This document shows positions 43,169-64,000 of a stretch of 64,000 nucleotides of DNA, piece by piece. Within the stretch, counting starts at the first letter, position 1. Each line of letters starts with the position of its first letter. The DNA is from Polyangiales bacterium (GTDB lineage: Bacteria; Myxococcota_A; Polyangia; Polyangiales; Ga0077539), in assembly GCA_044229975.1 (NCBI GenBank), contig JBGARZ010000020.1, positions 96,001 to 160,000 on the forward strand, read 5' to 3'. Made by a program: the position numbers and the translations under genes. A model generated the notes under the pieces. That model saw only the letters and a list, made by a program, of their open reading frames with translations, made no database searches and was not told the DNA's origin.

Positions 43169-43250
43169 GCGAGGATGGCGGAATTGGCAGACGCACTAGC
43201 TTGAGGTGCTAGCGAGTAACATCGTGGGGGTTCAAGTCCCCCTCCTCGCA
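43169..43250 (+). tRNA. tRNA-Leu(GAG)
   Basis: Acceptor stem GCGAGGA/TCCTCGC, D-loop GGAATTGGCAGAC, anticodon arm CTAGC-TTGAGGT-GCTAG, long variable arm and GGTTCAAGTCC. CCA is not encoded. Confidence 0.96.
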
Positions 43251-43255
43251 CTCTA

Positions 43256-43298
43256 GAAGGCCTCGAAACTCCAAAGGTTTCGGGGCCTTCGTCATTTT
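43256..43298 (+). terminator. Intrinsic terminator-like hairpin between tRNA and integrase
   Basis: GAAGGCCTCGAAAC/GTTTCGGGGCCTTC stem followed by GTCATTTT. Confidence 0.75.
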
Positions 43299-43323
43299 GT
43301 TCACCCAAACGGTTCACCCAAAC
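43299..43323 (+). repeat. 12-bp direct repeat GTTCACCCAAAC, putative integrase arm sites
   Basis: Copies at 43299-43310 and 43312-43323, about 50 bp from the tRNA end. Confidence 0.6.
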
Positions 43324-44626
43324 CTCTGGGCAGGGGCAGCCGGAACCGCCTCGGGATGAGCTTGAGCTTCCGCATCTCGGCGCACTGCCGCTCCCAGCTC
43401 GGGACCGCGTACAGGTGCCGGGCGGTCTGGCTCGACGGGGCGTGCGTCCACCGGGCGGCGACGTTCTCCTCCATGCCGGCGTCCGCGCAGAGCGACGCGA
43501 GGGTGTGACGGAGGTCATGGATGCGGTGACCCTTGATCCCGCACGCCTCCAGGTCGCGCTGGAGGGCGTCCCACACCGCCTGCTGCCAGAGGGGGCCGCC
43601 AGCGCCCACGCGCGTCCCGCGCCGTCGCCCTGTTCCCGCGCGCACGGGCACGAGGAAGTCGGTGGGCGTCGGCGCGGCCCCGTACTCGGCCAGCCACCCC
43701 TCGCCCGCCCACCAGTCGAGCACCACGCGCAGGAGCGGGTGCTCGGGGACCTCGCGGCAGTTCTCCGTCTTCAACGGCGTGACCTCCCGCGTCCGGTGGT
43801 GGATCTGGCGGGCGATGGACACGCGCCGGAGCAGCGGCGTCTCTTCGTCGAGCAGGTCACACCATCGGAGCGCGACGGACTCGGACACACGCGCGCCGGT
43901 GAGCAGCAACAAGAACCACATCACCATCCAGCGCGGTTCGATCGACGGCTCGCCGAGCAACACCTCCACATCGCAGCGCGGCATCCGATAGTCGCGGCGA
44001 GCGATGGGGTCCGCGTCGATTGCCTGCGGGCGGATGTCGCTCGGGAGCACGGCCGTCGGGTCCTGCACGAGCAGCTTGTGGAACACAGCGCCACGGAGGG
44101 CGCGCGCCACGGGGTCGAGGGTGTTGCGGACGGTGCGCGGCGCGGGTGCGCTCTTGGCGCGTGCCGTCTTGCGCCCGCGCACCAGTTCGAGCCACCGCGC
44201 GATGTGCTGCGGGTCCACCTTCGCCACGGACAACGTTCCGAGGCTCCACCCGTCGGGCGCGGCCAGGGCGAGCGCCGCAACGGTGCGACGACGGTCCTTC
44301 GCGGCCTCGGGGTAGGTCTGCTTCGAGAGCCAGTCGTCGCACCAGCTCGCGACGGTCATCTCTGCCGAAGGCGGCGGAGCAACGGGTTCGCGTGCATCGG
44401 GTGCCCAGCTCCCTTCGTCGTACCGCTCCTGGAGGCGGTGGGCGTACCGCTTCGCGTAGCCCTCGTCGGCGCGCGTGGTGCCGGTGACCGGCTCACCCTC
44501 GCGGGTGACCGGATGCTCCAGGCGGGGCGACCGACGATCAAGCCCCTTGGGCTCGCGGGAGAGAGTGATGCGCGCGTACCACCGGCCCTTACGGTGGACG
44601 GCGCTGCCAGTGCGTGGGCGGGCCAT
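43301..44626 (-). CDS. Tyrosine recombinase/integrase
   Basis: TGARVSE (R), PLKT (K), HDLRHT (HxxR), WTH and HLY catalytic residues. Confidence 0.93.
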   Translation of the reverse strand: MARPRTGSAVHRKGRWYARITLSREPKGLDRRSPRLEHPVTREGEPVTGTTRADEGYAKRYAHRLQERYDEGSWAPDAREPVAPPPSAEMTVASWCDDWLSKQTYPEAAKDRRRTVAALALAAPDGWSLGTLSVAKVDPQHIARWLELVRGRKTARAKSAPAPRTVRNTLDPVARALRGAVFHKLLVQDPTAVLPSDIRPQAIDADPIARRDYRMPRCDVEVLLGEPSIEPRWMVMWFLLLLTGARVSESVALRWCDLLDEETPLLRRVSIARQIHHRTREVTPLKTENCREVPEHPLLRVVLDWWAGEGWLAEYGAAPTPTDFLVPVRAGTGRRRGTRVGAGGPLWQQAVWDALQRDLEACGIKGHRIHDLRHTLASLCADAGMEENVAARWTHAPSSQTARHLYAVPSWERQCAEMRKLKLIPRRFRLPLPRGLGEPFG

Positions 44627-45135: not shown

Positions 45136-48100
45136 TTACGACGCGAGGGTGACCGCGACGGGAGAGGTGGCGTCGAGGACCGCTTCCAATTGCGCCATGG
45201 CCTCATCGGTCAGGTCAGAGAATGCCTTCGGTCGTCCCTCACGATCGGGGTGAAGAATGTGTTGTGTCCGATGTTCCGACCACCGGAGGGCATGGTCGGC
45301 CTGGGCTCCAGCCACGTAGAACCGTCGTTGCCCACCGACCTTCGACTCCCGAAGCTCGACTCCGAAATGCTCCAGTGTGACCCGCACCAACCGGATCTGA
45401 TCCCGATCGATGTCTGCCCGGACGACGATTCCCAAGGTCTCCAAGATCCGACGGTGGCGCTTGGCGTATGCGGCCACGCGGCCATCCGTGTGAACTTCCG
45501 TCGCGGCCCCCCATATTGTCGGGTCACGCGGGAGACCTGCCGCATTGAGGATGTCCCCCCATGCGACGCAGTGAAGGTAGGAGAAGCTCGCGTGCGACGC
45601 GGGCACCCCTTGGCTCCGTTCTCGCCGGTCCATAGCCTTGACCGCGTCGGGATCGGTCACGAAGGCCCGGTACTTTGCGAACGCCCGCACCCGCGACGCG
45701 AGCTTGGTGTCTGCCACCTCGTTGACGGTCACACCAGGACCCAACAACTCCCGTGCTCGGTATTTCCGAATGGCGTCGGCGTCCTCCGGCGAGAGGTCGG
45801 TGCCGTCCAGCGCGTCGGCCTCGGTGTGCATCAGATCACGGGCGGACCAGATCCGACGGGCCTCGGCCTCGCGTACCCGTGCCGCGGTGTCCTTGTGGAA
45901 CTTCGTGACCTCTCGGCGTTGGCTCTGATCCAGGACGCCCGAGGCCTCCAGCGTGGCGGCGTCCTCGGTCTCGGTAACGCCCGCTCCCTGACCTCGCAGA
46001 TACGCCAGCAGCGCCCATCGACGGTCGCCGCCCGGGCCGCCGGTGCGACGCTCATAGGACAACACTTCCGCGTAGAGCCGGTTGTGGTCCGTACGCCAAG
46101 GATCACGGACGGCTGCCCCGTCGTGATAGACGATCTCGTCCACCACATGCTGTTGCACCGTGACCACCCCATCGGGGGAAAGCACGCGAACCGTCGTGTC
46201 CCCGGCGGCCAACAGCCCGTCGTAGATCCGCTGGGGGTCCGTCTCACGGGTCCCGCGTTGGCCTGGGGGGCAGTGAATCCGCACTTCGGTCGAACGAGGA
46301 TGACGGACGCGGTGAGCTGCCTGGAGAAGGTCGTGGACGGTGCCGACGCCCTCGGCGGAGTAGACGTAGATCTGGTCGTAGTGGTCACGAACCGTGATGC
46401 TGAATCCCGAGCCCAACGTGGCCGTGTAGATGAGGGCGTCGTACGGGATCAACGGGTCGTTGAGGAACGCCTTGACCCTCGGGTCGGCGCGGACGGTCGT
46501 CGAGTTGATGAGCAACACGGAGGCTTCGGGGCGAACCCGGAGGAGTTCATCCCGGAGCCACCCGACATCCATCGGCGGATCTTTCAGTTGCGTGCCCTTC
46601 ACCGTGCTCTGGCGTTTCGACTGGCAATGAACGACGAGGCGCTTCCCCGCGGCCCAATCGAGAAGAAGATCCCGGTCGGTCAAGGCCCGTACGGAGTCCA
46701 CCCGATACGTGAACATCGGGATCGCAGGCAAGCATCGCAATTCTTGATCGCGAGCGTCGTCGGGGTCGATTCCGAGAAGCTCCCGTGCAAGGCGGAAGGA
46801 CCACGGATCGAGGTCGGCGTCCGCGATCACCACCTGTTCTGCGTTCTCGCAGAGACCTCGCAGTTGCCGGTGAACAGCCTCCGACTGAGGTCCTGAGAGC
46901 GTGGCACTGAAAAGGTGTCTGAGCGCCTGGGTGAACTCGTCCAACACCACGAGGGCCGGGCGGATCGGCACCACGGTCCCGTCGGGTGTGGTGGTGCATG
47001 AGACGATCCGAAGCACCGAGTCCAGGCAGACGGCGAGGTCGCCCTCGACCCGGCGGGGTACACCGGGGTCCAGATAGCAGATCACCTGAAACCTCTGTGC
47101 CGCCTGCTGGGCGATGGTCTGGCGGTGGCTGATCACCAGCACCGAGCCGGTGGCTCCCGAGGCACGGACCGCGTCGATGGCCCTTCGAATGACCTCGGTC
47201 TTCCCGGTGCCCTTGTCCGCGTGGAACCCGGTGAGGCGTGCCCGCAGTGGCTCGTACGGCAGATACCGACCCTCCACGAGCTCGTCGGCCCGATACACCC
47301 GCAGTCCCCCGACGGCTTCGAGGTCCCGCATGAGGGAGTTCCGAGAGGTGTTTTCGACGCCCGAGGGGGGGGTCGCACAATGGTCTCTTCTATTATTGTT
47401 GACACCATTTGTGCGACCCCCCCTAACTCCTTTGAGTGACACAGCATTTTCGGCTTCCGCCGCTTCTGTGCGCCCCCCCTTGGTCGCCGCCGCCGAGGGG
47501 CACCTCGAAGATCCCGGTGGCCGTCTCTCGAATCCCTCTGGGAACCCGTCGCGGTGCCAGAAACTCGTGTTGAGCTTCCACGACCGAAGCCACACGCGGC
47601 CATCGGCGTCGTGCCGAAGGACGCACGAACTCCCATCGAGGTAGGTTTCGCCAGCCCGGCGCGGTTCCACTTGCCACGGGTTGCCGATGGGGCTGAACTC
47701 CGACCCCACAGGCACGTTCCCACGGGTCCACGTCAGGAGGTCAACGCCCGCCGTCGGGTGGAGCACCTGCGAGAAGTCCACGGTCACGTTCGCCCAAGAA
47801 GCAGCGCCGCTCCCCTTGCCCGTCGTGGTGTCCCGGACCTTCGACGCCCGTCGCATCTTCGCAGCGATGTCGCCGGGCACGGGCAGCGACGGCCATCGGG
47901 CCCGGTGAGACGGCTTGTCCACGGCCATGACCGTCTCTGCTTCGGACAGAATCGGCGCGAGGTCGAGGAGGGTGTCCGCAGCCTCGCCGCACCCACGAGC
48001 AGGCGGAACCCCGCCCCAATCACCTTCGCCCGCGATTCGGGATGCGGGGTGCGACGGCAGGTAGAAGAGCCGCCCGTCCATCGCACGGGAGTCACAGGAG

Positions 48101-48717
48101 GGTTCCCCTGGTTTCACGGAGTCGAGGGGCAGACCCGCATCGATCAACTTCCGCCGCCCCCACCACCACGCCCGACAGGCGTCCTCGAAGGTAGTCGGTG
48201 CGGCGAGCAAGAGCACCACTCGAACGGATGCGTACCCGTCTTTGCACGACCACGTCGTCCAAACCAGACGGCGGAGGCCGATGAAGGCCCTGTTGATGAT
48301 ATCCGACACGTCCTGGACAGAGAGCCCAACTGCGTCGAGATCGAAGGGGAGCATCACCCAGAGAGCCTGCTGGCATGAGACACCCCGTTTGGCACCGTTC
48401 GGGAGGCGATATGGTAGAACGCCCCGGGCGCACTCCTTCATCTTCAGGGGGTTCTTCTTCGTATGGGCTTTGTCTGCCCATGTGAACCTGTCCTTCTTGT
48501 TCGCGATAGCCTGTGGGAACAGAAGGGCTCGTACCGAGAGCCCCCAACCCTGCGGGGAAACGTCGATCACGACGTGATCCACTCGCCGCGGACACTCCAT
48601 TCTTGGTGCGATATCGAGGACGACTTCGACGGCTTCGTTCGCATTGGAAGGACTATCGTTTGTGGTATTGTGAGTTGTCACGTCGTTGGTCCTTGCGAGC
48701 CCCGCCCTTGTCGCCAA
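45136..48717 (-). CDS. Replication protein: primase-like N-terminus fused to SF2 origin-binding helicase (CyRepA1/UL9-like)
   Basis: FDLD, TTWS, RVVL and FYLPS (primase-like). ADKGTGKT, ISHR, LDEF, ADADL, TATLGSGFSI and QAAHRVR (helicase). Start uncertain. Confidence 0.8.
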   Translation of the reverse strand: MATRAGLARTNDVTTHNTTNDSPSNANEAVEVVLDIAPRMECPRRVDHVVIDVSPQGWGLSVRALLFPQAIANKKDRFTWADKAHTKKNPLKMKECARGVLPYRLPNGAKRGVSCQQALWVMLPFDLDAVGLSVQDVSDIINRAFIGLRRLVWTTWSCKDGYASVRVVLLLAAPTTFEDACRAWWWGRRKLIDAGLPLDSVKPGEPSCDSRAMDGRLFYLPSHPASRIAGEGDWGGVPPARGCGEAADTLLDLAPILSEAETVMAVDKPSHRARWPSLPVPGDIAAKMRRASKVRDTTTGKGSGAASWANVTVDFSQVLHPTAGVDLLTWTRGNVPVGSEFSPIGNPWQVEPRRAGETYLDGSSCVLRHDADGRVWLRSWKLNTSFWHRDGFPEGFERRPPGSSRCPSAAATKGGRTEAAEAENAVSLKGVRGGRTNGVNNNRRDHCATPPSGVENTSRNSLMRDLEAVGGLRVYRADELVEGRYLPYEPLRARLTGFHADKGTGKTEVIRRAIDAVRASGATGSVLVISHRQTIAQQAAQRFQVICYLDPGVPRRVEGDLAVCLDSVLRIVSCTTTPDGTVVPIRPALVVLDEFTQALRHLFSATLSGPQSEAVHRQLRGLCENAEQVVIADADLDPWSFRLARELLGIDPDDARDQELRCLPAIPMFTYRVDSVRALTDRDLLLDWAAGKRLVVHCQSKRQSTVKGTQLKDPPMDVGWLRDELLRVRPEASVLLINSTTVRADPRVKAFLNDPLIPYDALIYTATLGSGFSITVRDHYDQIYVYSAEGVGTVHDLLQAAHRVRHPRSTEVRIHCPPGQRGTRETDPQRIYDGLLAAGDTTVRVLSPDGVVTVQQHVVDEIVYHDGAAVRDPWRTDHNRLYAEVLSYERRTGGPGGDRRWALLAYLRGQGAGVTETEDAATLEASGVLDQSQRREVTKFHKDTAARVREAEARRIWSARDLMHTEADALDGTDLSPEDADAIRKYRARELLGPGVTVNEVADTKLASRVRAFAKYRAFVTDPDAVKAMDRRERSQGVPASHASFSYLHCVAWGDILNAAGLPRDPTIWGAATEVHTDGRVAAYAKRHRRILETLGIVVRADIDRDQIRLVRVTLEHFGVELRESKVGGQRRFYVAGAQADHALRWSEHRTQHILHPDREGRPKAFSDLTDEAMAQLEAVLDATSPVAVTLAS
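47364..47424. repeat. Intragenic inverted repeat with AT-rich spacer, candidate origin
   Basis: AGGGGGGGGTCGCACAATGGT-(CTCTTCTATTATTGTTGAC)-ACCATTTGTGCGACCCCCCCT. Confidence 0.8.
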
Positions 48718-48812
48718 ACAAGGGGGCGGGGCATCGCCTTTTGGGGGTTATGGGTTCATCTGGATGAGCGTTCGGTTGTCCGCGAGAGGGCACCGCCACC
48801 GCGCCACACGCC

Positions 48813-49031
48813 TCATGGCGTCCCCTCGATGAGCCTCTCGACCGCGAGCACATCCACCCTCACGGCCCGACCCAGACGGAGCGGGGCGATGCCCAGCCGA
48901 CGAAGGGTTCTCTCGACCGTTCGCGGGCTGCACTTCCACCTCGCGGATGCCTGCTCGACCGTCATCCACAGGCGGTCGGTGTTCGGGGCCTGGGAGGGGG
49001 ACGAGGGGGGTGTCGGGACGGGTGTGGTCAT
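48813..49031 (-). CDS. Excisionase-type HTH protein
   Basis: WMTVEQASARWKCSPRTVER...LRLGRAVRV and a GGAGGAG RBS. Confidence 0.8.
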   Translation of the reverse strand: MTTPVPTPPSSPSQAPNTDRLWMTVEQASARWKCSPRTVERTLRRLGIAPLRLGRAVRVDVLAVERLIEGTP

Positions 49032-49528
49032 CGGCTTGCTCCTCCAAGGGCGCGCCGATAGGCCAAGTACCGAGGGGACGGCCCCGGACGGCGCGCGGTG
49101 CCGTGCGTTCGTCGCGGGTGCGTCGGGTGAAGGGGAGTCGGTGCGGGTCATGAACCCTTTACGCACTCGACGTGGGGGGACGGTCGAATTCGTCCTCCAT
49201 CTGAACCGACATCGACTCGGTGGTCTTGAAACGTGATTTCGTCCCGCCGGGACTACTCGGGGGACGTCGGGGGGACGACAGACGCCCTGGGGGCATCAGG
49301 CAAAAGGGGGGTTTGCAGGGGTTTAGTGACCTTTTCGAGGTGGCTCCCCCCGGTTCATAAGAACCGCAAAGATAAGTTCCGACCCCCCCGGTCCTACCCC
49401 CAAAAGGCTCTATCGATCCGGCAAGGATTTTCTGAGGGCCTTGGCTTCAATGGGGTTCGGCCTGCCTTCACCGCAGCCTGCCCCGCGCCCGGCCTCGGGG
49501 AGGTTCCGTGGGAATCGGCAGGGCGGCA

Positions 49529-49644: not shown

Positions 49645-50787
49645 ATGACCACGACCCTCACATCCAACGGCACGCTCGGCCCCACCCTCGACGCGACCAA
49701 CCTCGCCACCGTGCTGGGCCACGTCCTTGAGGCGAACGCCCTGGCGACCGCCTACTGTGAGCTCCCGACGCCCGTGTGCATCTGGGGCCCGCACGGCATC
49801 GGCAAGACCGCCCTCGTGAGGGAGCTCGCTCGCACCCGGGGTTGGGGCTTCGTCGTCGTAGCACCGGCACAGATCGAGGAGCTCGGGGACCTCCATGGTC
49901 TGCCCACGCGCATCGACGGCGGGACCGGCGAAGCCAAGGACGGGCGCACGGGCTTCCTGCCGCCCACCTGGGTCCCGACCCAGAAGGGCCCCGGCATCCT
50001 CCTGTTGGACGATTTGAACCGCGGGGACGTTCGCGTGTTGTCCGCCCTCATGCAGCTCCTCCAGACGCACCGCCTGTACTCCTGGTCGTTGCCTCCCGGA
50101 TGGCAGATCGTCTGCACCGCGAACCCGGACAGCGGGTCGTACGCCGTGACGCCGATGGACGACGCGATGCTCACCCGGATGGTGCACTTCACGATGACCT
50201 TCGACGCGAGGGTCTGGGCGCGGTGGGCCCACGACGCCGGGATCGACCCCCGCTGCATCGAGTTCGTGACGACGTACCCCGAGGCTGTTCTTGGTCGGCG
50301 TACGACGCCCCGCACGCTGGTGCAGTTGTTCCGCCTCGTCGCCCCGATCCGCGACTTCAACAGCGCCCGCGAGCTCGTCTCCAGGCTCGCGCATTCGACC
50401 CTCGACGTTGGTACCGCGGCGTCGTTCGTGAGCTTTGTCTGTGTCGAACAACACCAGCTCGCCACCGCCAAGGACATCCTCGACGCCGCCACCCCTGCGG
50501 ACGCGCGCAAGCACATCATCAACGCCGCGACCGACCACACTCAGGGAGGGCGGCTTCGCATCGACCGTGTGGGGCTGGTGATCGCTCGCATCGAAGAGGT
50601 GATCGAGGCCGACGACTACACCCCCGGCCCCCGGCACCCGGCCAATCTCTCGGCCCTACTCGCGAGCGCGGAGGTGCCGCGGGACATGGCGATGCGCCTG
50701 CACCGCGCCCTCGCACGACGGGGCCTCGGGCATCTCGTGCGAGACCGCGCCGTTGCGAAGCGCCTCCTCAACGAGGGGGCGTCGTGA
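49645..50787 (+). CDS. MoxR-like AAA+ ATPase
   Basis: WGPHGIGKT, DLHGLP, LLLDDLNR, VCTANP, AMLTRM and TTPRT. Confidence 0.88.
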   Translation: MTTTLTSNGTLGPTLDATNLATVLGHVLEANALATAYCELPTPVCIWGPHGIGKTALVRELARTRGWGFVVVAPAQIEELGDLHGLPTRIDGGTGEAKDGRTGFLPPTWVPTQKGPGILLLDDLNRGDVRVLSALMQLLQTHRLYSWSLPPGWQIVCTANPDSGSYAVTPMDDAMLTRMVHFTMTFDARVWARWAHDAGIDPRCIEFVTTYPEAVLGRRTTPRTLVQLFRLVAPIRDFNSARELVSRLAHSTLDVGTAASFVSFVCVEQHQLATAKDILDAATPADARKHIINAATDHTQGGRLRIDRVGLVIARIEEVIEADDYTPGPRHPANLSALLASAEVPRDMAMRLHRALARRGLGHLVRDRAVAKRLLNEGAS

Positions 50788-51998
50788 TGGTGGCCCGTGA
50801 GCCCGTCACCATCACCGACGATGAGTGCTGCGAGCTCCTCGCGACCGCGTCGTGGGACCTCGGCCGCAAGCTCCCCTTCTACGGGCACGTCCTCGCCGCG
50901 TTCGACCGCGTCGTTGGTGTCTCCGTTCCCACCGCCGCCGTGGGTGCGGGTCACGAAGGGCAGCCCACGCTCTTCCTCAACCCAACGTTCTTCGGGGCCA
51001 CGCTGCGACGCGACGAGCACCGCATCGCGGTCCTCGAACACGAGGTCCTTCACGTGGTCTGCGGCCACTTGCGGTTGAACACCGCCGAGATGCCCGACGC
51101 CCGGCGAAGGGCCATCTCGATGGACATCGTGGTCAACCAGTACGTTTCGCACCCGCTCCCACGCGGCGCGGTCACCCTCGCGGCGTTCAAGGACTTCCCC
51201 GCCGGGCTCACCGTCGAGAGCTACTACCGCCTGTTGTCCAAGATCCCCGACGAGGAGCTCGCGAGGTTCGGGCGGGACCTTTCCCGCGGGCACAACCGCT
51301 GGAGCGACCCTCAAACAGACGAGAGCGGGCAACGGCTCGTGGACACGCTCGACGAGATCGTCACCGAGGCCCTGCGTCGGGCTGAACGCGATGGGAGCTT
51401 CGACTCCCTCGCCAAGCCGCTGCGGCTGTCGCTCTTGCGGGGTCGTCTCTCTCCCGTGGGTGCCACCGACTGGCGGCGTGCCCTGCGGCTCTTCAGTGCC
51501 CGCGCCCTCCGTGCTGGTGTGCGCGCCACCAACCAACGGGAGTCCCGCCGCTACGGAGCCTCCACGGGCGACTGGCGGGGTCCAATCGTGCCGGGCCTCC
51601 GTCGCGGTCGCAGACCCTCCTTGGCGGTGGCCATCGACACGTCGGGTTCGATCCCGATCGACACTGTCGGGAGGTTCTACGAGGAGGTCGGGCGCATCGT
51701 CGCCGCCGGAGCCACCGTCCACATCATCGAGTGCGACCTCGCGGTGCAGCGCACCTACCCGTGGACAGGGGTGCCGCCCACGCACTCCACGGGCGGCGGT
51801 GGGACGAACTTCGACCCCGTCTTCCGGTGGCTCATCAACGAGGGCCGCCGGTTGAACCTCTCGGGCTGCGTGTACCTCACCGACGGTCACGCCCCGCGCC
51901 CTCTTGTACGCCCGCCGGTCCCGGTGCTCTGGGCGGTCACCGCCAACGGGACGAACGCCAACACGGCCTTCGGGCCGAGCATCTCCCTGCCCGCGTAG
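50787..51998 (+). CDS. DUF2201-type metallopeptidase + vWA-like protein
   Basis: HEVLH, DIVVNQ, AIDTSGS (MIDAS), GGGGTNFDPVF and YLTDG. TGATG coupling to the ATPase. Confidence 0.88.
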   Translation: MVAREPVTITDDECCELLATASWDLGRKLPFYGHVLAAFDRVVGVSVPTAAVGAGHEGQPTLFLNPTFFGATLRRDEHRIAVLEHEVLHVVCGHLRLNTAEMPDARRRAISMDIVVNQYVSHPLPRGAVTLAAFKDFPAGLTVESYYRLLSKIPDEELARFGRDLSRGHNRWSDPQTDESGQRLVDTLDEIVTEALRRAERDGSFDSLAKPLRLSLLRGRLSPVGATDWRRALRLFSARALRAGVRATNQRESRRYGASTGDWRGPIVPGLRRGRRPSLAVAIDTSGSIPIDTVGRFYEEVGRIVAAGATVHIIECDLAVQRTYPWTGVPPTHSTGGGGTNFDPVFRWLINEGRRLNLSGCVYLTDGHAPRPLVRPPVPVLWAVTANGTNANTAFGPSISLPA

Positions 51999-52001
51999 TT
52001 T

Positions 52002-52059
52002 TCGCTAAACACCCCCCTCGCAGAGTTGTTAGGGGTTGGAAGGGGAACGGTTCAGACCG
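52002..52059 (+). promoter_or_regulatory. Conserved upstream motif, copy 2
   Basis: TCGCTAAACACC-N8-AGAGTTG...AGGGGAACGG...GACCG, starting 3 nt after the vWA stop. Confidence 0.75.
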
Positions 52060-52128
52060 ACGCGGGCACCGGGTGGTGCTCGTCGTCGCGACGACCATCC
52101 CGCGCCCGCCATGGTCGAACGCTCGCGT

Positions 52129-52194
52129 GTCGATCTCGCTAAACACCCACATCCCAGAGTTGATAGGGGGGAAGGGGGACGGAACGCTGACCGA
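52129..52194 (+). promoter_or_regulatory. Conserved upstream motif, copy 3
   Basis: GTCGATCTCGCTAAACACC-N8-AGAGTTG...AGGGGGACGG...GCTGACCG. Confidence 0.75.
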
Positions 52195-52321
52195 TACGAC
52201 GCACGGGCGGTCGTCACGGAGAGCCCCGCAACACCCGCTTCGAGAACCCCCGACCATTCACCGAGAGCACGCGCCCTTGCGCTCTCTCACCCCTCTCTAT
52301 TCACCGAAAGGAACCGTCTCC

Positions 52322-53401
52322 ATGAACCACGCCGTCGTCCCCGCCAACATCACCACGCTCGCCCGAACGTCCATCGCCGCCAACACCTCCTCGCCGCCGC
52401 CTACCCGGATGCTCAAGGGCCGCTCGTTCGCCAACGTGTTCGAGTCCGTGATGACTCGCGCTGGCGAGATGGTCCCCGACCGTGTCGTCCACGTCGCCGA
52501 CCTGCGTATGACGCCCGAGGGCCACGTCGAGCTCCCCGGCGGCACGCGCTACCGCCTCAACGACTGGGCTCGCAAGGGCCTCGCCTCGATGCTCGGTCTC
52601 CGCTGGGAGACGTGGTTCAAGTCGGCCTCGGGTGAGGAGCGCGCCGAGGAGGTCAACCGCCGCTTCAGCAGGATTCCGGGCGAGAAGAAGATCCGTGCGT
52701 GGCGCGACGACGACGGTGTGGCCGATGGCATCGCCAGGGCCTTCCTCGCCCCGGGCTTCACGCCCATCGACGACGCCCGGATCTTCGAGCGCATGAACAC
52801 CATGCTCAAGGGGCTCGTCAGCGAGTACGTGTGGACCGCCACGGAGTTCACCGACTCGACGAGCAACTTCACGGCGGTCCACACCGAGGCGTTCGACCTG
52901 GACGGCGACCGGCTGCACCCCGGGTTCCATCTCAGGAACTCAGAGGTGGGTGGGGCGGCGCTGTCCCTCGATGACTACGCCATGAGGCTCGTCTGCATGA
53001 ACGGGCTCATGGTGCGGGTCGGCGGCAAGCGCTCCCTCTACCGCACGCACCGCAGCATCGAGGACGACCAGCTCGCGGCTGCCCTCGTGATTGCCGTGGG
53101 TCGCCTTCCCCAGCGGTGGCAGGTCTCCTTGGAGTGGATGCGCGCTGCCAAGGGCCTCGCCGTCGCCCACCCCGACGACGCGGTGGCCGCGATCCTCGGT
53201 GATTCCACCGAGGTGCCGAAGGCCCTCATCGAAGAGGCGCAGCGCGTGGTGCTCCGCGACGGGGATGCGACGCGCTTCGGCGTCGTGCAGGCCATCACAC
53301 TCACGGCGCATCAGTCGAACCGTAACCCCGACGTGCGGTTCGCCATGGAGCGCCTCGCGGGCGACTACCTCGCGGCCACGCCCGTCCTCACGGCAGCGTG
53401 A
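52322..53401 (+). CDS. DUF932-like protein
   Basis: GFHLRNSEVG...RLVCMNG...RTH and TRFGVVQAIT motifs. GAAAGGA RBS. Confidence 0.7.
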   Translation: MNHAVVPANITTLARTSIAANTSSPPPTRMLKGRSFANVFESVMTRAGEMVPDRVVHVADLRMTPEGHVELPGGTRYRLNDWARKGLASMLGLRWETWFKSASGEERAEEVNRRFSRIPGEKKIRAWRDDDGVADGIARAFLAPGFTPIDDARIFERMNTMLKGLVSEYVWTATEFTDSTSNFTAVHTEAFDLDGDRLHPGFHLRNSEVGGAALSLDDYAMRLVCMNGLMVRVGGKRSLYRTHRSIEDDQLAAALVIAVGRLPQRWQVSLEWMRAAKGLAVAHPDDAVAAILGDSTEVPKALIEEAQRVVLRDGDATRFGVVQAITLTAHQSNRNPDVRFAMERLAGDYLAATPVLTAA

Positions 53402-54270
53402 CCACGCACCCGGTCGGGCCCCTCATGGACATCATCCATGAGGGGCTCGCGGGACCCCCATCGAGGACCGCCGTGATCCTCCCCGACAACTACTCCGTCC
53501 GCGGCGCTCGTGGGCGCTTCGATCCGCAGGCGTGGATCCGCCATCTCGCGGACCATCCCGCCGACGTTGCTCACCAGATCGAGCTCCTATCCCTCCTCGA
53601 CGACGAGGTGGTTGAGACCCTGCTGGCCGGCGTGGATGTCGGCCCGAGGTACCCGGTGAGGGCGTCGGGCTCGTCCCTGCGTTGGGTGCTTCCGCGGGTG
53701 TTCCGTCGGCCCCGTCCGGTGACTGTGCTCGACGTGAGGTTCTCGACGCACCTCGCGGCCGTACTTGGTCTCGCGGCGTGGGGCGAAGGGCCCGCTGCAC
53801 GGCGAGTCCGGTCGGGACTCCGCGAGTTGCACCTCCCGCAGCGGGCTCAGTGGTGGCTGAACGACAGCCTGGAGAGCTTGAACAACCTCGTGCAGTTCAC
53901 CGCGCCCGGTACCCTTTGGCACCCGGCCGCGACGTTGCCGCGACGGTTCTTCGTGATGCCGAAGATGAACGAGCTCGACCTCAACGGGGCGGGGCTTGGT
54001 GACTTCCGAGTCGCAACCACCGAGTGGAACCTCCCCGTCGTGACGCGCCTCTCCCTCTCGGGCAACAGCCTCACGAGGGTGCCTGACGCGGTGCTGCGGC
54101 TCGACACCCTGGAGGTCCTGAACCTCATGTGCAACCCCATGAGGGAGGTGCCCGAGGCCCTCGCGGCCCTCCCGAGGCTGCGCTACCTCGACCTGCGGCA
54201 AACCGGCGTCATGTCGCTCCCGGCAGCCTTCGCCGCCCGCCCCGGACTCCATGTCCAGCGCGGGGACTGA
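53398..54270 (+). CDS. Leucine-rich repeat protein
   Basis: LSLSGNSLTRVP, LEVLNLMCNPMREVP and LRYLDLRQTGVMSLP. GTGA overlap. Confidence 0.8.
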   Translation: MTTHPVGPLMDIIHEGLAGPPSRTAVILPDNYSVRGARGRFDPQAWIRHLADHPADVAHQIELLSLLDDEVVETLLAGVDVGPRYPVRASGSSLRWVLPRVFRRPRPVTVLDVRFSTHLAAVLGLAAWGEGPAARRVRSGLRELHLPQRAQWWLNDSLESLNNLVQFTAPGTLWHPAATLPRRFFVMPKMNELDLNGAGLGDFRVATTEWNLPVVTRLSLSGNSLTRVPDAVLRLDTLEVLNLMCNPMREVPEALAALPRLRYLDLRQTGVMSLPAAFAARPGLHVQRGD

Positions 54271-54414: not shown

Positions 54415-54972
54415 ATGAACAACAAGCCACTCTCATCTGTTCCGTTCCCGAACTCCACCCCGGAAGGGAGGTTCTCCCTCGACGACTCCGACGTGCTGCC
54501 CATCAAGTACGCCGGGCACGCGGTGGTGGGCGTCCTGGTGGGGTGCCGTCCTCAGTGGGTCTCTGTCGCCGTGCGAGACGGGACGTGTGGCGGGTACCAC
54601 CTCGCACCCCGGCAACCGCGCGACCGCCGCGGCATGATGGTCGCCCTCGCGGGCCACGTCGCCCTGTCGATCTACGCCGAGAGGGCAGTCATGGCTGCGG
54701 ACCTCGCCACATGGGCCGAGGTCACCGACCTCGCCAGCTTCGCAGACCTGTTCACCCCGGAGGTGCGTGACGACGATCGACAGTTTCGCGACCTCTACGA
54801 GCGCCTCTGCGCCGAAGTCCGGGAATTGCTCCTGGCGCACTGGGCGAGCGTCCTCGTCCTCGCCACCGAGCTCGCAGACTGCGGGCGACTCGAAGGCCCC
54901 GAGCTCACCCGGATCGTGCGGGGGGTCACGTCCGCCCGCCGTCGTCCCGAACTGACGACGCCCGCCGGATGA
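54415..54972 (+). CDS. Degenerate FtsH/M41 peptidase-like domain protein, paralog 1
   Basis: IKYAGHAVVG (cf. HEAGHAVV), MVALAG and LLAHWASVLVLATEL...LEGPEL. Confidence 0.65.
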   Translation: MNNKPLSSVPFPNSTPEGRFSLDDSDVLPIKYAGHAVVGVLVGCRPQWVSVAVRDGTCGGYHLAPRQPRDRRGMMVALAGHVALSIYAERAVMAADLATWAEVTDLASFADLFTPEVRDDDRQFRDLYERLCAEVRELLLAHWASVLVLATELADCGRLEGPELTRIVRGVTSARRRPELTTPAG

Positions 54973-55113
54973 AGCGTCTCCAGTGCCCTTCCCACCCACA
55001 CCAACGAGTCGCCCTCAACCACCCATGACCATCAACACTCCCGTTCGATCCCTCTGTTGCGCCTTCGAAACGGCCCTGAAGCCACTCTCTTCAGGAATCC
55101 AGGAGCCCCGATC

Positions 55114-56352
55114 ATGACCACCCATCAAGCCTCCCCCGTCCCGTCGTCCATCCCGACTGAGATCGACGTGAAGATCGACGACCTCAAGTTCGACCCCAAG
55201 CTCCAGACGCGGGCGAAGCCCCACGACCGGCAGTACGTCATGGGCCTCTGCGAGGTGATCCGGGAGCGAGGGTTCCAGGATTCCATCGTGGTCTTCCGTG
55301 ATCCCACCGACGGGAGCCAATGGGTGGCGGACGGCCACGCCCGGGCGGATGCCGCGAGGTCGGCCGGATGCGCCACGATCCGGGCCCGCGTCCACGAAGG
55401 TGGACTTCGAGAGGCCTTCGAGTTCGCCCTGGGAGCCAACGCCACGCACGGTGTCCGCCGGACCAACGCGGACCTTCGCCACACGGTACTGACGGCTCTC
55501 GCAGACCCCGGTACGAAGACGTACACGAACGAGAAGATCGCTGATCTGTGTCACTGCTCCGACCACTACGTCGGCGTTCTCCGCAACAAGCTGGCGGCGA
55601 CGAGTGGCAACCCGGCGGAAGCTCGCCGCACGGGCAAGGATGGGAAGTCCTACCCGGCGAGGCGTCCCCGCAAGGCGGCAGTGCCGACCAGATCGAAACC
55701 GGCCAGAAGTTCCTCGGTCGCGGTGTCCCCTCCGCAGACCAGGACCGACTCGCTCGCATCGACGGACGGGGCAGCGGGGTCCAGCATCGCCATCACCAAG
55801 GGAGTGCCCACGGAGGCGAGCCACGATGGTCTGAGCGCCGAGGTGACGACGCCGACCAACTCGACGCACGTCATCCACGAGGTCGTCGGGGTCATCCCGG
55901 TTGAGCCGCCCGCGGCCCTCCTGGGAGAAGGCCCCCACGTGGTCGCCACCCCGAGTGAGGGTGAGCCCACGGCGATGCCGACCGACGCCACGGTGGTCTC
56001 CACCCCGGAGGACGTGATCCCGTCCATCACGATTCCCTCGGCGCTGGGCGAGGACGAGGAAGCTCTGTTGGGACAGCTCCTCAGCATCTGCGCGAAGATT
56101 CACGCCCGTCGCCAGCGCCAACCGGAGGTGACCGTCCGGGAGGACCTCGTTCGGGCGGCCCGCGAGAAGGTCGCGCGATGCCTGGACGAGTGCTACCCGG
56201 ATACGCGGGACACCGTTCACGGGAAGCTCACCAACGCCCCGGCCCGGTTCTACGAGATGATGGGTTACAACCCCCGTCCCGGTCACGGGAGTGACGAGGC
56301 AATTCTGGGCGTGCTCTCGGCGGAGATCGACCAGGAGCGCCTGACCACCTGA
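55114..56352 (+). CDS. ParB N-terminal-like domain protein with HTH and low-complexity linker
   Basis: IVVF...WVADGHAR, ANATHGVRRTNAD and TNEKIADLCHCS. AGGAG RBS. Confidence 0.78.
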   Translation: MTTHQASPVPSSIPTEIDVKIDDLKFDPKLQTRAKPHDRQYVMGLCEVIRERGFQDSIVVFRDPTDGSQWVADGHARADAARSAGCATIRARVHEGGLREAFEFALGANATHGVRRTNADLRHTVLTALADPGTKTYTNEKIADLCHCSDHYVGVLRNKLAATSGNPAEARRTGKDGKSYPARRPRKAAVPTRSKPARSSSVAVSPPQTRTDSLASTDGAAGSSIAITKGVPTEASHDGLSAEVTTPTNSTHVIHEVVGVIPVEPPAALLGEGPHVVATPSEGEPTAMPTDATVVSTPEDVIPSITIPSALGEDEEALLGQLLSICAKIHARRQRQPEVTVREDLVRAAREKVARCLDECYPDTRDTVHGKLTNAPARFYEMMGYNPRPGHGSDEAILGVLSAEIDQERLTT

Positions 56353-56381
56353 CCGCAGGTAGATGCGCGCCTGACCCACTA

Positions 56382-56413
56382 CGGGGCTCCTCGGTGTTGA
56401 CCGAGGAGCCCCG
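56382..56413. terminator. 14-bp perfect hairpin after the ParB-like gene
   Basis: CGGGGCTCCTCGGT-GTTG-ACCGAGGAGCCCCG with no U tract. Confidence 0.6.
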
Positions 56414-56629
56414 GCCCGTCGTCCTCGCTGCGAGGGCGGGGCCGGGGAGCGCCGTGGTCGTCCGCGACCGTCCAGTACCTCAACGAGGACGGGGACACGG
56501 GTGAGCGCCGAGGGGCCAACGACGCGGAGAACCGGAGGGTGATGGTCGCGAGAAAAAATCTCGGGAGGGGGCTCATGCGGGCGTAACGCGCAGTGCAGGA
56601 CACCAGACCCCCTGCAGAAGGTAAAGCAA

Positions 56630-57490
56630 ATGACGACCAACGACGCTATCTCGAATCCGGTCTCGGCCACGCTCCCTGTGCCGGAGGTACCCTCGCTCCT
56701 TCTCTTCCGTTCCACACTGGCAATCAAGATGGCCGGACACGCGGTGGTCGGAGAGGCCATGGGCCGTCGCCCGAGGTCGGTGTGGTTGAATCCCCGTGAC
56801 GGGATGTACGGAATTTACCGCATCGATAGGCCCAAAGCGGACGCTGAACTCAGCGCGATGGTCGCCCTCGGTGGGTACGCCGCCCTGAGCATCGCGGATC
56901 TGATGGACGAGCCCACGTCCAAGGGCTTCAGGGAGTCTGCTCTGTGCACCGACGCACACCACGCCTCCATGTACTTTCCCACGGAGGAGAACAACCGCCC
57001 TGCACTGGCGCTGCGGCTCCTCCCCTTCGTTCACGACTTGCTGCTTCGGCGATGGAACAGGGTGAAGATCGTCGCCGCGTACCTCGATGAACACGGAATG
57101 ATCGACGGTCCGACCCTGGGACGTCTCGTCTCTGCGGCCGACAACATCGAAGTGCCGGGCCCTCAGATCGAGGATGCTCAAGTGTTTCCGATCGCCAGTC
57201 CCGCGGTCCCCATGAAGGCCGTCGATGCGCATGAGAGTGCCGTGGTCCGAGACGCAGAGAGCACGCAGGTCAACCCCGCCAAGCCCCAACGGATCGCAAG
57301 CGAGTACGATGTGGATCTCCTCCGTGAGGTTCTCGAAGGCATCGCATCCAAGGAGGTGTCCGTCGAGGAAGCGGTGGCCTTCCTGAAGCCCACGCCGATG
57401 CAAGAGATCGCCCTTCGTTCTTTCGCCCGTGAGGGTTCCACCCTCGCCAAGGCCCTCGACGCCTTCACCTACACCCCGTCGCAGAAGTAG
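56630..57490 (+). CDS. Degenerate FtsH/M41 peptidase-like domain protein, paralog 2
   Basis: IKMAGHAVVG, MVALGG and LLRRWNRVKIVAAYLDEHGMIDGPTL, plus an extra C-terminal tail. Confidence 0.65.
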   Translation: MTTNDAISNPVSATLPVPEVPSLLLFRSTLAIKMAGHAVVGEAMGRRPRSVWLNPRDGMYGIYRIDRPKADAELSAMVALGGYAALSIADLMDEPTSKGFRESALCTDAHHASMYFPTEENNRPALALRLLPFVHDLLLRRWNRVKIVAAYLDEHGMIDGPTLGRLVSAADNIEVPGPQIEDAQVFPIASPAVPMKAVDAHESAVVRDAESTQVNPAKPQRIASEYDVDLLREVLEGIASKEVSVEEAVAFLKPTPMQEIALRSFAREGSTLAKALDAFTYTPSQK

Positions 57491-57933: not shown

Positions 57934-58488
57934 CTACAGCCCCTTCAGAAACGATCTGAAGGTCAGGGCAACGCCCGTTGGGAGCGCCGAGACAGTTCCA
58001 ATCCCAGGAGCCGAGGAAGTTCCAGTCCCAGGGATCTGCCCTGTCGGAACCAGTTGGCGCTCTGGAACGGCTTGCCCCTCTCGGATAAGCGCTTCGACGA
58101 ACCCCTCCAATTCAGGGTCCACGTCCAAGGCGAACCGTAGTTCATGCTCAGCAACGTGCGGGAACCAGGACACCCCGAACTTCTTCCGAAGACTTCCCCC
58201 GACTTGGGCAGCACGCTCGATCTGCCCACCATGTTGAAGGTAGAGCGCCGCGACAAACGCAACAACTCGCCGCTGTTCCTCCTCACTCTTCCGGATGCAC
58301 AACTGACAGGCCTTTTCGATAGCCTTCTGCTGTGAGTCGAGATTGACTCGGCCTTTTAGCACTTGCTGGCGATCGCTCCAGGCTTGCCAGCCGCTCTGAA
58401 TCCTATTCGCTGCCCCTTGAACCATATTGGGGTGCTTGAGGGCGTAGTCCATTACCTTCACGGCGATAGAAACGAGGTCGGCCACCAT
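57934..58488 (-). CDS. Hypothetical protein of lower GC content
   Basis: Protein-like composition on the strand opposite the other cargo. Confidence 0.55.
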   Translation of the reverse strand: MVADLVSIAVKVMDYALKHPNMVQGAANRIQSGWQAWSDRQQVLKGRVNLDSQQKAIEKACQLCIRKSEEEQRRVVAFVAALYLQHGGQIERAAQVGGSLRKKFGVSWFPHVAEHELRFALDVDPELEGFVEALIREGQAVPERQLVPTGQIPGTGTSSAPGIGTVSALPTGVALTFRSFLKGL

Positions 58489-59154: not shown

Positions 59155-59343
59155 ATGAACGGAACCGAGTACGGGCACTGCGCCAAGGGCGGCCACACGA
59201 AGGACCCCGACCAGAACTACGTGTGCGGCAAACACCTCAGCCCCGAGGTCCCCAGTCTCTACACCCACTGCGCCAAGTGCGGCATCAGCTTGGATGAGGA
59301 GTCACGCCGTTACGTGTGCGATGCGTGCCTCGTCCCACGATAG
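59155..59343 (+). CDS. 62-aa Cys/His-rich Zn-finger miniprotein
   Basis: GAAGGAG RBS and internal duplication HCAKGGH..YVCGKH / HCAKCG..YVCDAC. Confidence 0.7.
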   Translation: MNGTEYGHCAKGGHTKDPDQNYVCGKHLSPEVPSLYTHCAKCGISLDEESRRYVCDACLVPR

Positions 59344-59374
59344 TAGCCGCCCGTCCCTCCAGGAACGCCCCGGC

Positions 59375-60139
59375 ATGATCCAGCCCTTCGCCCAAAACAC
59401 GCTCGACCGGCTCTGGGCGACCTACACTCCCGCGGACACCACGAAGGGCTCGCTCCTCCAACCCGAGTACCTCCTCGCGGCCGAGGGGCCGTACAAGGTG
59501 TACTTCGCCCCGCTCGGTGTCGTCCCGGAGGCGACCGCCCGCGTAGTCCTCCTGGGCCTGACCCCAGGCCTCGCCCAGACCCAACTCGCAGCCAAGACCT
59601 TCCTCAACGCCTCCCCTGAGGTGCGGGCCGACACGATCGAGTTCGGACGACGGCTCCGTCGGGAGGTGGCGTTCGGGGGGTCGATGCGTGACCTCCTGTG
59701 CAGGATGCTGGACGAGATTGACCTCCCCAGGTTGCTTGGCCTCTCGCGGAGCCAAGAGATCTTCGCGGCTGACGGGGACGACGTCGCCACGACTTCCGCG
59801 TTGGTCTACCCAGTATTCACCGGCCCGACGCTGAAGAATTTCGGCGGCTCTGCCGACCTCGCCCGCGTGGAGCTGTTCCGCGAGATGCTGACGACACTCC
59901 TGGCCCCGCGGCTGGCCGCCGCCCCGCGGGCGCTGATCATCCCGTTCGGGAAGGCCGCAAGCACCGGGGTGCGCTTCCTGGTTGAGCAGAACGCCGTGGA
60001 CGAAGCGCAGGTGCTCTGGGAGTTCCCGCACCCCTCGGGGGCCAACGGCCACCGTGTCCGGCAGTTCGCCCAGGCCAAGGCGGGGCTCCGCAGCCGCGCC
60101 GTTGCGTGGGCGATGGCATCGTGGCCGAAGGGCCGGTAG
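59375..60139 (+). CDS. Uracil-DNA glycosylase superfamily protein
   Basis: VVLLGLTPG (motif A-like), AFGG, IIPFGK and FPHPSGAN (motif B-like). Confidence 0.75.
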   Translation: MIQPFAQNTLDRLWATYTPADTTKGSLLQPEYLLAAEGPYKVYFAPLGVVPEATARVVLLGLTPGLAQTQLAAKTFLNASPEVRADTIEFGRRLRREVAFGGSMRDLLCRMLDEIDLPRLLGLSRSQEIFAADGDDVATTSALVYPVFTGPTLKNFGGSADLARVELFREMLTTLLAPRLAAAPRALIIPFGKAASTGVRFLVEQNAVDEAQVLWEFPHPSGANGHRVRQFAQAKAGLRSRAVAWAMASWPKGR

Positions 60140-63500: not shown

Positions 63501-64000
63501 TCACCTACTGGGACCACCGGGCCGAACAGCTCAAGATGCAGGAGCAGGCGGGCAAGCCCAACGCCAAGCTGAACTCGGACGAGGCCCGCAAGCGCGCCGA
63601 CGGCCTCCAGGGAAGGCTCCAGAAGCGCCTGGAAGACCTCAAGCTCGAAGGGAAGATCTCCCCGCTCCCCCCCGTAGCACTCGGGGGCCTCCTGGTGATC
63701 CCGGCGGGCCTCCTCGCCGCGATGAGCGGACGGGCACCGCTGACGACGGGCAAACCCGTGGACACCCAGGTGAGCGCGGCCCGAGCTCGCGCCGTGATCA
63801 TGGACATCGAGCGTCGTCTCGGGTTCGAGCCCACGGACCGGGAGTTCGAGAAGCTCGGCTACGACATCGAGAGTCGTGTGCCGGGTACCGGCAAGCTGCG
63901 CTTCGTCGAGGTCAAGGGGCGGGTCGCGGGCGCGGACACCATCACGGTGACCCGCAACGAGATCCTCTACTCTCTCAACAAGCCCGGCGACTTCATCCTT
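60563..64000 (+). CDS. SNF2-family helicase with C-terminal DUF3883/NOV nuclease-like domain, 3' end outside the window
   Basis: Translated by hand: PLPHQ, LLADDPGAGKT, DEAH, TATPH, ATDAAGEGINLQ, WNPNRLEQRFGRIHRIGQ and GYDIES...FVEVKGR...TRNE. Confidence 0.92.
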   Translation, partial: MIQLEQLQPRAAIRGIVPDALVVVVSVQWFGSEALELTYKTSTGKVANELLYRDDEARLDVVEQGRPWSFDGDGALFRLVSEAQRIRLAHLFDPVLAVHTSVVDPLPHQITAVYEAMLPRQPLRFLLADDPGAGKTIMAGLLIKELIARGDLQRCLIVCPGSLAEQWQDELYRRFHLPFEILTNDKVEAARTGNWFLETNLVIARLDKLSRNEDIQQKLQAPDCRWDLVVCDEAHKMSATVFGGETKYTKRYRLGQLLSTLTRHFLLMTATPHNGKEEDFQLFMALLDGDRFEGRFRDGVHVADASDLMRRMVKENLLKFDGTPLFPERIAYTVPYKLSDAEAHLYKAVTTYVREEFNRADALENDKRAGTVGFALTVLQRRLASSPEAIYQSLHRRRERLESRLRELEVLQRSGQTAPVLAASVPALDADAVEDLDEAPDTEVEAIEEEVLDQATAARSMAELKIEIETLKALESLALTVRRSGNDTKWRELASLLGEIFTDSSITNRLAEPKVQYGHAIPPPKASPHQKLVIFTEHRDTLNYLQNRITTLLGRKDAVVMIHGGVGREDRLKVQEAFRHDPEVQVLLATDAAGEGINLQRAHLMVNYDLPWNPNRLEQRFGRIHRIGQTEVCHLWNLVAEETREGDVYRKLLDKLEQARKALGGQVFDVLGKLQFEGESLRELLIKAIRYGDQPDVRARLTVAVENALDRTQIQNLLEDHALAHDVMDVGRVQRIREDMERAEARRLQPHYIESFFAQAFKGLGGTVKQREPRRYEITHVPAPVRNRDRLIGIREPVLPRYERIAFEKALIAPPGQPLAAFVCPGHPLLDAVLDLTLERHRDLLKRGAVLVDERDPGTQPRVLFYLEHAIQDASLTRTGERRVVSKKMLYVELDGEGHARHVHYAPYLDYRPLAAGEPGVDALLDRPECAWIEREIESKAMGHAIAHVVPEHLKEVRDAKLALLAKTEAAVKDRLTKEITYWDHRAEQLKMQEQAGKPNAKLNSDEARKRADGLQGRLQKRLEDLKLEGKISPLPPVALGGLLVIPAGLLAAMSGRAPLTTGKPVDTQVSAARARAVIMDIERRLGFEPTDREFEKLGYDIESRVPGTGKLRFVEVKGRVAGADTITVTRNEILYSLNKPGDFIL

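Follow-up and report, generated by a model that had tools for sequence, protein, structure and literature searches.

Predicted M41-fold pseudo-proteases with a lysine at the first zinc-ligand position on a satellite-like element of a Polyangiales bacterium

The present work concerns two genes, called here ORF A and ORF B (ORF, open reading frame), carried by a 64,000-nucleotide stretch of the genome of a Polyangiales bacterium (assembly GCA_044229975.1, contig JBGARZ010000020.1, positions 96,001 to 160,000 of the forward strand), hereafter the window. An earlier note, made from the sequence of the window alone, had described them as two paralogous FtsH-protease-like domains that both lost the catalytic HE of M41 peptidases. 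Both genes indeed read IK[Y/M]AGHAVVG on the + strand (Table 1) in place of HEAGHAVV: IKYAGHAVVG in A (context LPIKYAGHAVVG, Lys31 codon at 54505-54507) and IKMAGHAVVG in B (context LAIKMAGHAVVG, Lys33 codon at 56726-56728). As the note had also claimed, A and B retain the MVAL[AG]G helix and the C-terminal LLxxWxxVxxxAxxL...GxxL helix and carry no ATPase or transmembrane part: neither protein has a Walker A motif, a Pfam AAA match or a clear hydrophobic or membrane helix (top 19-residue hydropathy of 1.49 for A and 1.55 for B). The two proteins share 37% identity across 150 amino acids (aa) (BLASTP, E = 5e-16) and are the sole two matches in the 10-Mb source genome (G000); A is acidic, with an isoelectric point (pI) of 5.1, and B has a pI of 8.1. 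No fused form of 449-2000 aa was found among 7991 scored candidates, which is weak evidence. Three features are missing from the earlier note: a ParB-like gene between the two ORFs, a third lost residue (the Glu of GGxxAE, replaced by Leu), and the invariance of the second His and of a downstream Asp.

Relatives of A and B were assembled into a set of 23 rows (from the genome G016, among 30 family genomes, 16 further proteins, the metagenome locus L010 and cluster members), many of which are close kin; 18 of them were either seeds or results of a word-seeded search. A HMMER search that used no word index on 1.84 billion representatives gave 252 matches at E ≤ 1e-3, including five clusters at E ≤ 1e-30 that all have K-x-AGH, the next match appearing only at 1.6e-9. 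Among the 145 other matches listed, HExxH is present in 138 and K-x-AGH in none, the last seven being two unrelated-looking proteins, two truncated ones and three single odd variants. After exclusion of P0038 and P0049, which are long and unrelated-looking, the joint alignment comprised the 23 clade rows, 143 rows of an outgroup of stand-alone M41 proteins (median 174 aa, no ATPase, found on mobile DNA) and three host FtsH domains. All 23 clade members have K-[MVY]-AGH and none has an intact HExxH. Three positions are replaced throughout the clade: (i) the first zinc His, which is Lys33 in 23/23 members (His in 140/143 outgroup rows), (ii) the catalytic Glu, which is Met, Val or Tyr34 in 23/23 (Glu in 140/143), and (iii) the Glu of GGxxAE, which is Leu86 in 23/23 (Glu in 76 and Gln in 24 of the 143 outgroup rows, Glu in the three host FtsH domains). 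Two others are retained in every clade member: the second His (His37, present in 141/143 outgroup rows) and Asp108, which aligns to the FtsH Asp (136/143).

The clade forms five clusters at 50% identity and its 23 members are all full-length (173-286 aa), database proteins being open frames by selection. Although identity between members falls to 33%, 16 of the 149 columns, among them those of the new Lys and Leu, are invariant across a tree length of 7.2. Only four of the 37 charged or His columns are invariant (K33, H37, R47 and D108), with P ~5e-4 for all three ligand positions falling among the invariant charged or His columns, and simulated Lys columns remain invariant 5% of the time over this tree length. 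Cys106, considered as a new ligand, was ruled out because it is missing from the three deepest branches. The gene is rare: besides G000, one of 400 genomes of the order carries a clade gene, and the three genomes that match in a sample of 400 from the phylum have distant stand-alone M41 genes, none of them of K type where the motif is visible. One scan of genome contigs found no clade locus, another found one that is the same as G016:C29 (counted once), and a metagenome scan found at least one (L010). No member was found in the viral contigs, phage records or plasmid records searched. A and B have no informative match in PHROGs (best E = 0.04), PADLOC or NCBIfam, a single-sequence search with A returned A alone, and the clade profile gave only LRP6-type chance matches at E ≥ 0.5 against PDB sequences.

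B also has a tail of about 105 aa (57170-57487), made of a low-complexity linker and a short helical domain. This type of tail is present in three of the 23 members (B, P0007 and P0022), P0007 giving a weak SHOCT-like match (E = 0.09), and is missing from relatives 89% identical to B.

Pfam is blind to the fold of these proteins: neither A nor B has any match at E ≤ 1, and PF01434, at its curated cut-off, is absent from the 18 clade members tested; five of the six outgroup stand-alone M41 proteins tested pass it. In the ESM Atlas, A and B both neighbour one cluster of 179-aa stand-alone proteins (scores 0.97 and 0.96), 14% of whose members are annotated with PF01434. An AlphaFold2 model of B(1-179), built on an 18-sequence alignment, has a predicted local distance difference test score (pLDDT) of 81.9 and a predicted template modelling score of 0.79. 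With this model, the top Foldseek matches in the PDB are exclusively FtsH, FtsHi, YME1 and AFG3L2 (best E = 4.2e-5), and the top viral match is a 214-aa stand-alone phage M41 protein. VIA aligned the model with 8xks_B (Z 15.0, root-mean-square deviation 3.9, 148 residues) and with the FtsH protease domain 2di4_B (Z 13.1, deviation 3.4, 135 residues), and unrelated folds begin at Z 5.3. The FtsH-type matches and the gap that separates them from unrelated folds support the M41 assignment put forward in the earlier note, and the domain of B is predicted to adopt the FtsH/M41 protease fold; for A, the fold is assigned through its homology to B and its ESM Atlas neighbour.

The clade is much closer to stand-alone M41 proteins than to FtsH. 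Its comparison by hhalign with 40 intact outgroup proteins gave a probability of 99.7% (E = 4.9e-27, 142 columns), KMAGH falling on HEAGH, versus a probability of 22.6% over 36 columns for the clade profile against the three host FtsH domains. A hidden Markov model of the outgroup detects clade members at about 2e-30, and the outgroup profile matches FtsH structures at 2.5e-22. The spacing between the Asp and the Trp of the C-terminal helix is 34 in the clade, 38 in the outgroup and 69-77 in host FtsH (P0090 and P0147, with <75% occupancy, being excluded from this analysis and from the FastTree one), and the clade and the stand-alone outgroup alike lack a stretch of about 35-40 residues that follows the Asp helix in FtsH. 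Identity of the clade to the outgroup does not exceed 33%, and the clade has about five extra residues before the Asp. Taken together, the profile match and the shared absence of the FtsH segment argue that the parent family is that of the stand-alone peptidases and not FtsH; at the level of sequence, descent of the clade from stand-alone M41 peptidases with an intact HExxH appears well established.

The clade is monophyletic (FastTree support 0.948), with IQ-TREE supports (UFBoot second) of 79.6/97, and of 78.6/98 after removal of the three motif columns. The IQ-TREE set comprised 19 clade rows, three FtsH rows and, out of 139 outgroup rows, the closest 30; four near-duplicate clade rows, P0046 and P0136 were omitted. 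Since A is sister to every other clade member, A and B do not result from a local duplication. They are indeed paralogous, as proposed, but the duplication is not recent, and they are the two deepest lineages of the clade. Among the stand-alone M41 proteins, P0046 and P0136 appear circularly permuted, with the GG-x-x-AE helix before HEAGH; the AlphaFold2 model of P0046 (pLDDT 87.5) has a long N-terminal helix (3-36). At locus L016 (G438:C200, 5516-6618), an integrase adjoins a tandem pair of stand-alone M41 genes; HEAGH is intact in one, and the other is cut by the contig end.

The ratio of nonsynonymous to synonymous substitution rates (dN/dS), computed by NG86 on four genes forming six pairs, is 0.55-0.63 in five pairs, with intervals below 1 (one reaching 0.995). 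The occurrence of K-x-AGH in 23/23 members, the monophyly and these ratios indicate a conserved pseudo-enzyme clade and not random decay, in line with what had been suggested from the Lys shared by A and B.

Compared to the protease domain of FtsH, YME1 and AFG3L2 (MEROPS M41, PF01434; 2di4, 4ww0, 7tdo), A and B are alike in predicted fold (Z 13.1-13.5), and the AGH, GG, Asp and C-terminal helices align with those of the clade. They differ from it by K-x-AGH instead of HExxH, by Leu for the Glu of GGxxAE, by a chain about 35-40 residues shorter after the Asp, by a similarity below Pfam detection and by the lack of any AAA+ or transmembrane part. The stand-alone M41-like peptidases encoded by phages, satellites and islands (ESM Atlas 179-aa cluster; BFVD A0A6J5RJ76), which are uncharacterised, are the direct parent family. 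They share with A and B their size, the missing FtsH segment, the absence of ATPase and the location on mobile DNA, but keep HExxH and the Asp, whereas the clade replaced the His and both Glu. The stand-alone M41 fold has a more remote representative in PDB 5IQJ, an uncharacterised Vibrio cholerae protein of 131-134 aa (Z 10.8; profile E = 0.006), and no relevant paper mentioning this entry was found in the literature searched. The FtsHi/Ycf2 pseudo-proteases of chloroplasts likewise have an M41 domain with a degenerate zinc motif under selection (PMC8197885). Their structures (8xks_B, 8xkv_F and 8xqw_B) are the best structural matches to the B model. However, FtsHi proteins work as subunits of hetero-hexamers and retain both the AAA+ motor and the membrane anchors, whereas A and B have neither part and arose separately, out of stand-alone bacterial proteins. 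The LytM domain of EnvC, a degenerate metallopeptidase regulator of unrelated fold (M23), is an analogy of working mode only, as a case in which a dead peptidase domain came to serve for protein binding. The literature searched, which covers few subscription journals, yielded no paper on M41 domains of mobile elements, whether stand-alone or dead.

The duplication of the tRNA 3′ end (repeated at C37:1798-1867 of G000), the integrase, the excisionase-like helix-turn-helix (HTH) gene and the replication (Rep) gene (Table 1) indicate that A and B sit on a satellite-like element integrated in a tRNA-Leu gene. This element is at least 33 kb long, its right end being on a separate contig (C37).

Table 1. 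Features of the element in the window (positions of the whole stretch) that surround or compose ORF A and ORF B.
Feature	Positions	Strand	Details
Left end of the element, with tyrosine integrase and the tRNA-Leu(GAG) gene used for integration	43169..44626	.	tRNA at 43169-43251
CyRepA1-like replication protein and excisionase-like HTH	45136..49166	-	NF042913 E 6.7e-55, just under cut-off; PF12728
MoxR-type AAA, vWA/DUF2201 metallopeptidase (intact HEVLH), DUF932 and LRR protein	49645..54270	+	context of A and B
ORF A, 185 aa, predicted M41-fold pseudo-protease	54415..54972	+	K31-Y-A-G-H35, L84, D105; deepest clade branch
KYAGH codons of A	54505..54519	+	align to HEAGH
ParB-N-like gene between A and B	55114..56352	+	PF02195 E 0.012; TIGR00180 E 3.5e-4; below curated cut-offs
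Hairpin-rich conserved DNA, from ParB-like 3′ end to B start	56297..56629	+	counterparts L007 1206-1580 (-) and L010 ~740-840
ORF B, 286 aa	56630..57490	+	predicted M41-fold pseudo-protease domain ~residues 21-170; K33-M-A-G-H37, R47, L86, D108
KMAGH codons of B	56726..56740	+	align to HEAGH
Asp108 codon of B, invariant	56951..56953	+	aligned with Asp of FtsH 'GASND'

Part of this organisation recurs elsewhere. The clade gene of G016 has an integrase and a DUF932 gene in its vicinity and is followed by an HTH gene; in L010, a ParB-like gene precedes the clade gene, itself followed by an HTH_17 gene and by a long putative Rep ORF without Pfam match; in L009, an HTH gene comes directly after the clade gene. 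Contigs from two other sequencing runs join the end of the LRR gene (54270) to the ParB-like gene (55159) by 329 other letters, and a third run shows a similar jump; B-like DNA is present in these runs. Since contigs of related elements bypass A, A is optional and B the regular copy. Among the runs listed as carrying such DNA, none was of RNA, which says nothing about expression. One further contig links the 3′ flank of B to the xis/Rep junction. The ParB-like gene was rejected as an obligate partner, G016 retaining only its tail and none of four viral ParB-like loci having an M41 gene. A joint between 49588 and 52229 in one of these contig sets results from a repeat and not from a loss of MoxR.

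A promoter- or operator-like repeat of about 60 bases (TCGCTAAACAC-N10-AGAGTTG...) occurs in three copies (49536, 52002 and 52136) before MoxR and DUF932 and has no other occurrence in the 10-Mb genome at ≤2 mismatches. In relatives, pairs of MoxR and vWA (DUF2201, intact HEVLH) genes adjoin an LRR gene in four of ten short loci (L069-L078), and a three-gene MoxR-vWA-LRR module is possible. The cargo of the element includes a HmaA/HmaB/HmaC defence system and a GmrSD-N-domain gene (window 60563-64000; L019 564-13291). Its cargo region also contains a 168-aa ORF (57934-58440, -) that matches nothing in Pfam or PADLOC, and a gene of the uracil-DNA-glycosylase superfamily (59294-60139, +) whose PF03167 match (E = 4.9e-5) falls slightly short of the cut-off. 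Read by eye, the right end of the element (C37:1-1900) has two ORFs ahead of the attachment site copy, one pentapeptide-repeat-like and one HTH-like, and a second related integrase (29% identity) lies at C31:120595-121791 of G000.

Conservation is higher in the DNA that precedes B than in the coding DNA. This upstream DNA includes a perfect 14-bp hairpin (56382-56413), whose core is identical in G016, a block upstream of the start codon that is conserved at all three loci (56546-56592), and, at ~56297-56345, short inverted arms that enclose a 22-base loop, the loop being inverted in G016. Its folding z-scores are -2.4 and -4.2 and it has no Rfam match. It could possibly be an origin, an operator or a leader RNA.

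The Asp of the FtsH 'GASND' motif, to which Asp108 aligns, we take to be the third zinc ligand in FtsH crystal structures; a Glu is named instead in two papers (PMC8197885, PMC6629908). Whichever the third ligand is, the site of A and B is devoid of at least one zinc ligand and of the general base, which strongly suggests that both proteins have lost zinc and are proteolytically inactive. A Thermotoga FtsH in which the first His alone is replaced is reported as zinc-deficient and protease-dead (PMC8943139); His-to-Tyr FtsH variants serve as substrate traps (PMC6629908). We tentatively favour the view that A and B are binders that hold, and do not cut, a protein of the type on which their stand-alone ancestors acted as proteases, the most likely targets being a regulator of the excision or replication of the element or a host defence protein. 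The replacement of His by Lys and of Glu by Met or Tyr would have abolished zinc binding and proteolysis. The invariance of the Lys alongside the old His and Asp suggests that its amine fills the vacated zinc position, where it would pair with these two residues, so that the substrate cleft may stay shaped. A target resembling the ancestral substrate would be held without being cut, which is the weakest part of the proposal. B-type genes would be the core copy; A would be a second copy that is older and optional and probably has another target.

Several points weigh against this proposal. The binding role is only inferred, and the conservation of H37 and D108 could be purely structural. Substrate trapping by FtsH also depends on its ATPase ring, absent from A and B. 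The word-seeded search from which most of the rows derive favours the motif, and many of these rows are close kin; the HMMER profile was itself derived from K-x-AGH rows, and the matches listed leave out 102 of the 252. Purifying selection is real yet moderate: the interval of the A-B pair spans 1 (dN/dS of 0.84, 0.58-1.17), and DUF932, on the same element, has a lower ratio (0.42) than the pseudo-protease genes. The genomic context comes from only three loci, of which two are short or lie at the end of a contig, and no HTH gene follows B in the window. A bolder version seems rather unlikely: the clade would be the first family of M41 pseudo-proteases in bacteria that stand alone, with Lys taking the place of the catalytic zinc, and would act as soluble traps for the substrate of a host protease, for a defence protein or for FtsH itself, A and B having different targets.

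Another explanation, also unlikely, is that the old active site was rebuilt around the Lys33/His37/Asp108/Arg47 cluster for a new chemistry or for a non-protein ligand such as phosphate, a nucleotide or nucleic acid. These four residues are the sole invariant ones among the charged or His columns, R49, R56, R64, R123 and R165 are retained in 19-22 of the 23 members, the core of the clade is basic (median pI of 9.2 versus 6.4 in the outgroup), and the His-to-Lys and Glu-to-Met changes take two base changes each. However, A is acidic and the pI of B is only 8.1, no conserved partner enzyme gene lies nearby, and we know of no precedent for such a site in the M41 fold.

The earlier note had proposed two mechanisms that fare worse. 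In the first one, quite improbable, A and B would be decoys or dominant-negative modulators that join or cap the protease ring of host FtsH and stabilise its substrates. The M41 fold predicted for B and the three host FtsH genes above the Pfam cut-off are compatible with it. So are an island-borne full-length FtsH2 that hetero-oligomerises with the core FtsH1 (PMC6629908) and the entry of FtsHi pseudo-proteases into FtsH12 complexes (PMC8197885). But the closest relatives of A and B are stand-alone HEAGH proteins and not host FtsH, and the segment after the Asp helix is missing. Furthermore, A and B have no AAA+ or membrane part, which PMC7949044 and PMC6629908 tie to FtsH assembly, and soluble Thermotoga catalytic domains are reported as monomeric (PMC8943139).

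The second mechanism, an adaptor role for the MoxR/vWA machine of the island, has very little likelihood. The MoxR-vWA pair is encoded on the strand of A, 2.4 kb upstream of it, and the runs with B-like DNA also hold MoxR-vWA-like DNA (4/4 and 3/4, among the pieces listed). However, none of the contigs listed bridges the two, and the carriage of both by the closest related elements is explained by their shared descent. Across the 30 family relatives, MoxR and the clade gene do not co-occur: nine have a close MoxR and none of these has the gene, several of the MoxR genomes being fragmented (64-96% complete), and a close MoxR is missing from G016 (96% complete), the one relative that carries the gene. 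Neither L009, L010 nor the surroundings of nine intact stand-alone M41 loci contain MoxR or vWA; the recurring neighbours within about 1.5 kb of ten MoxR loci are vWA (9/10) and LRR (4/10), and the three-copy repeat found before MoxR and DUF932 is missing before A and B.

It is equally hard to believe that the proteins are still active metalloproteases with unusual Lys/His/Asp ligands. All three ligand positions do carry invariant residues able in principle to bind a metal, and in rare cases Lys binds zinc in other enzymes, but the general-base Glu is replaced in all 23 members, with no compensating conserved acid close by. As to neutral decay after a single ancestral inactivation carried along by the mobile element, the modest dN/dS (0.55-0.84), the bypass of A in related elements and the rarity of the gene would fit it, but the full length of all members, the 16 invariant columns at identities down to 33% and a dN/dS below 1 in five of six pairs make it scarcely plausible.

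The clade is small and the hosts found are uncultured. The dead FtsH domains known so far, those of chloroplast import motors, retain their ATPase, whereas A and B are soluble, ATPase-less proteins on bacterial mobile DNA. If the trapping role is true, A and B would represent a new class of anti-host or counter-defence proteins, made from a dead FtsH-type domain in satellite-like elements of myxobacteria. They would also offer a clean example of pseudo-enzyme evolution, with a possible swap of Lys for zinc, and may act as natural substrate traps for the large and unstudied family of stand-alone M41 peptidases.

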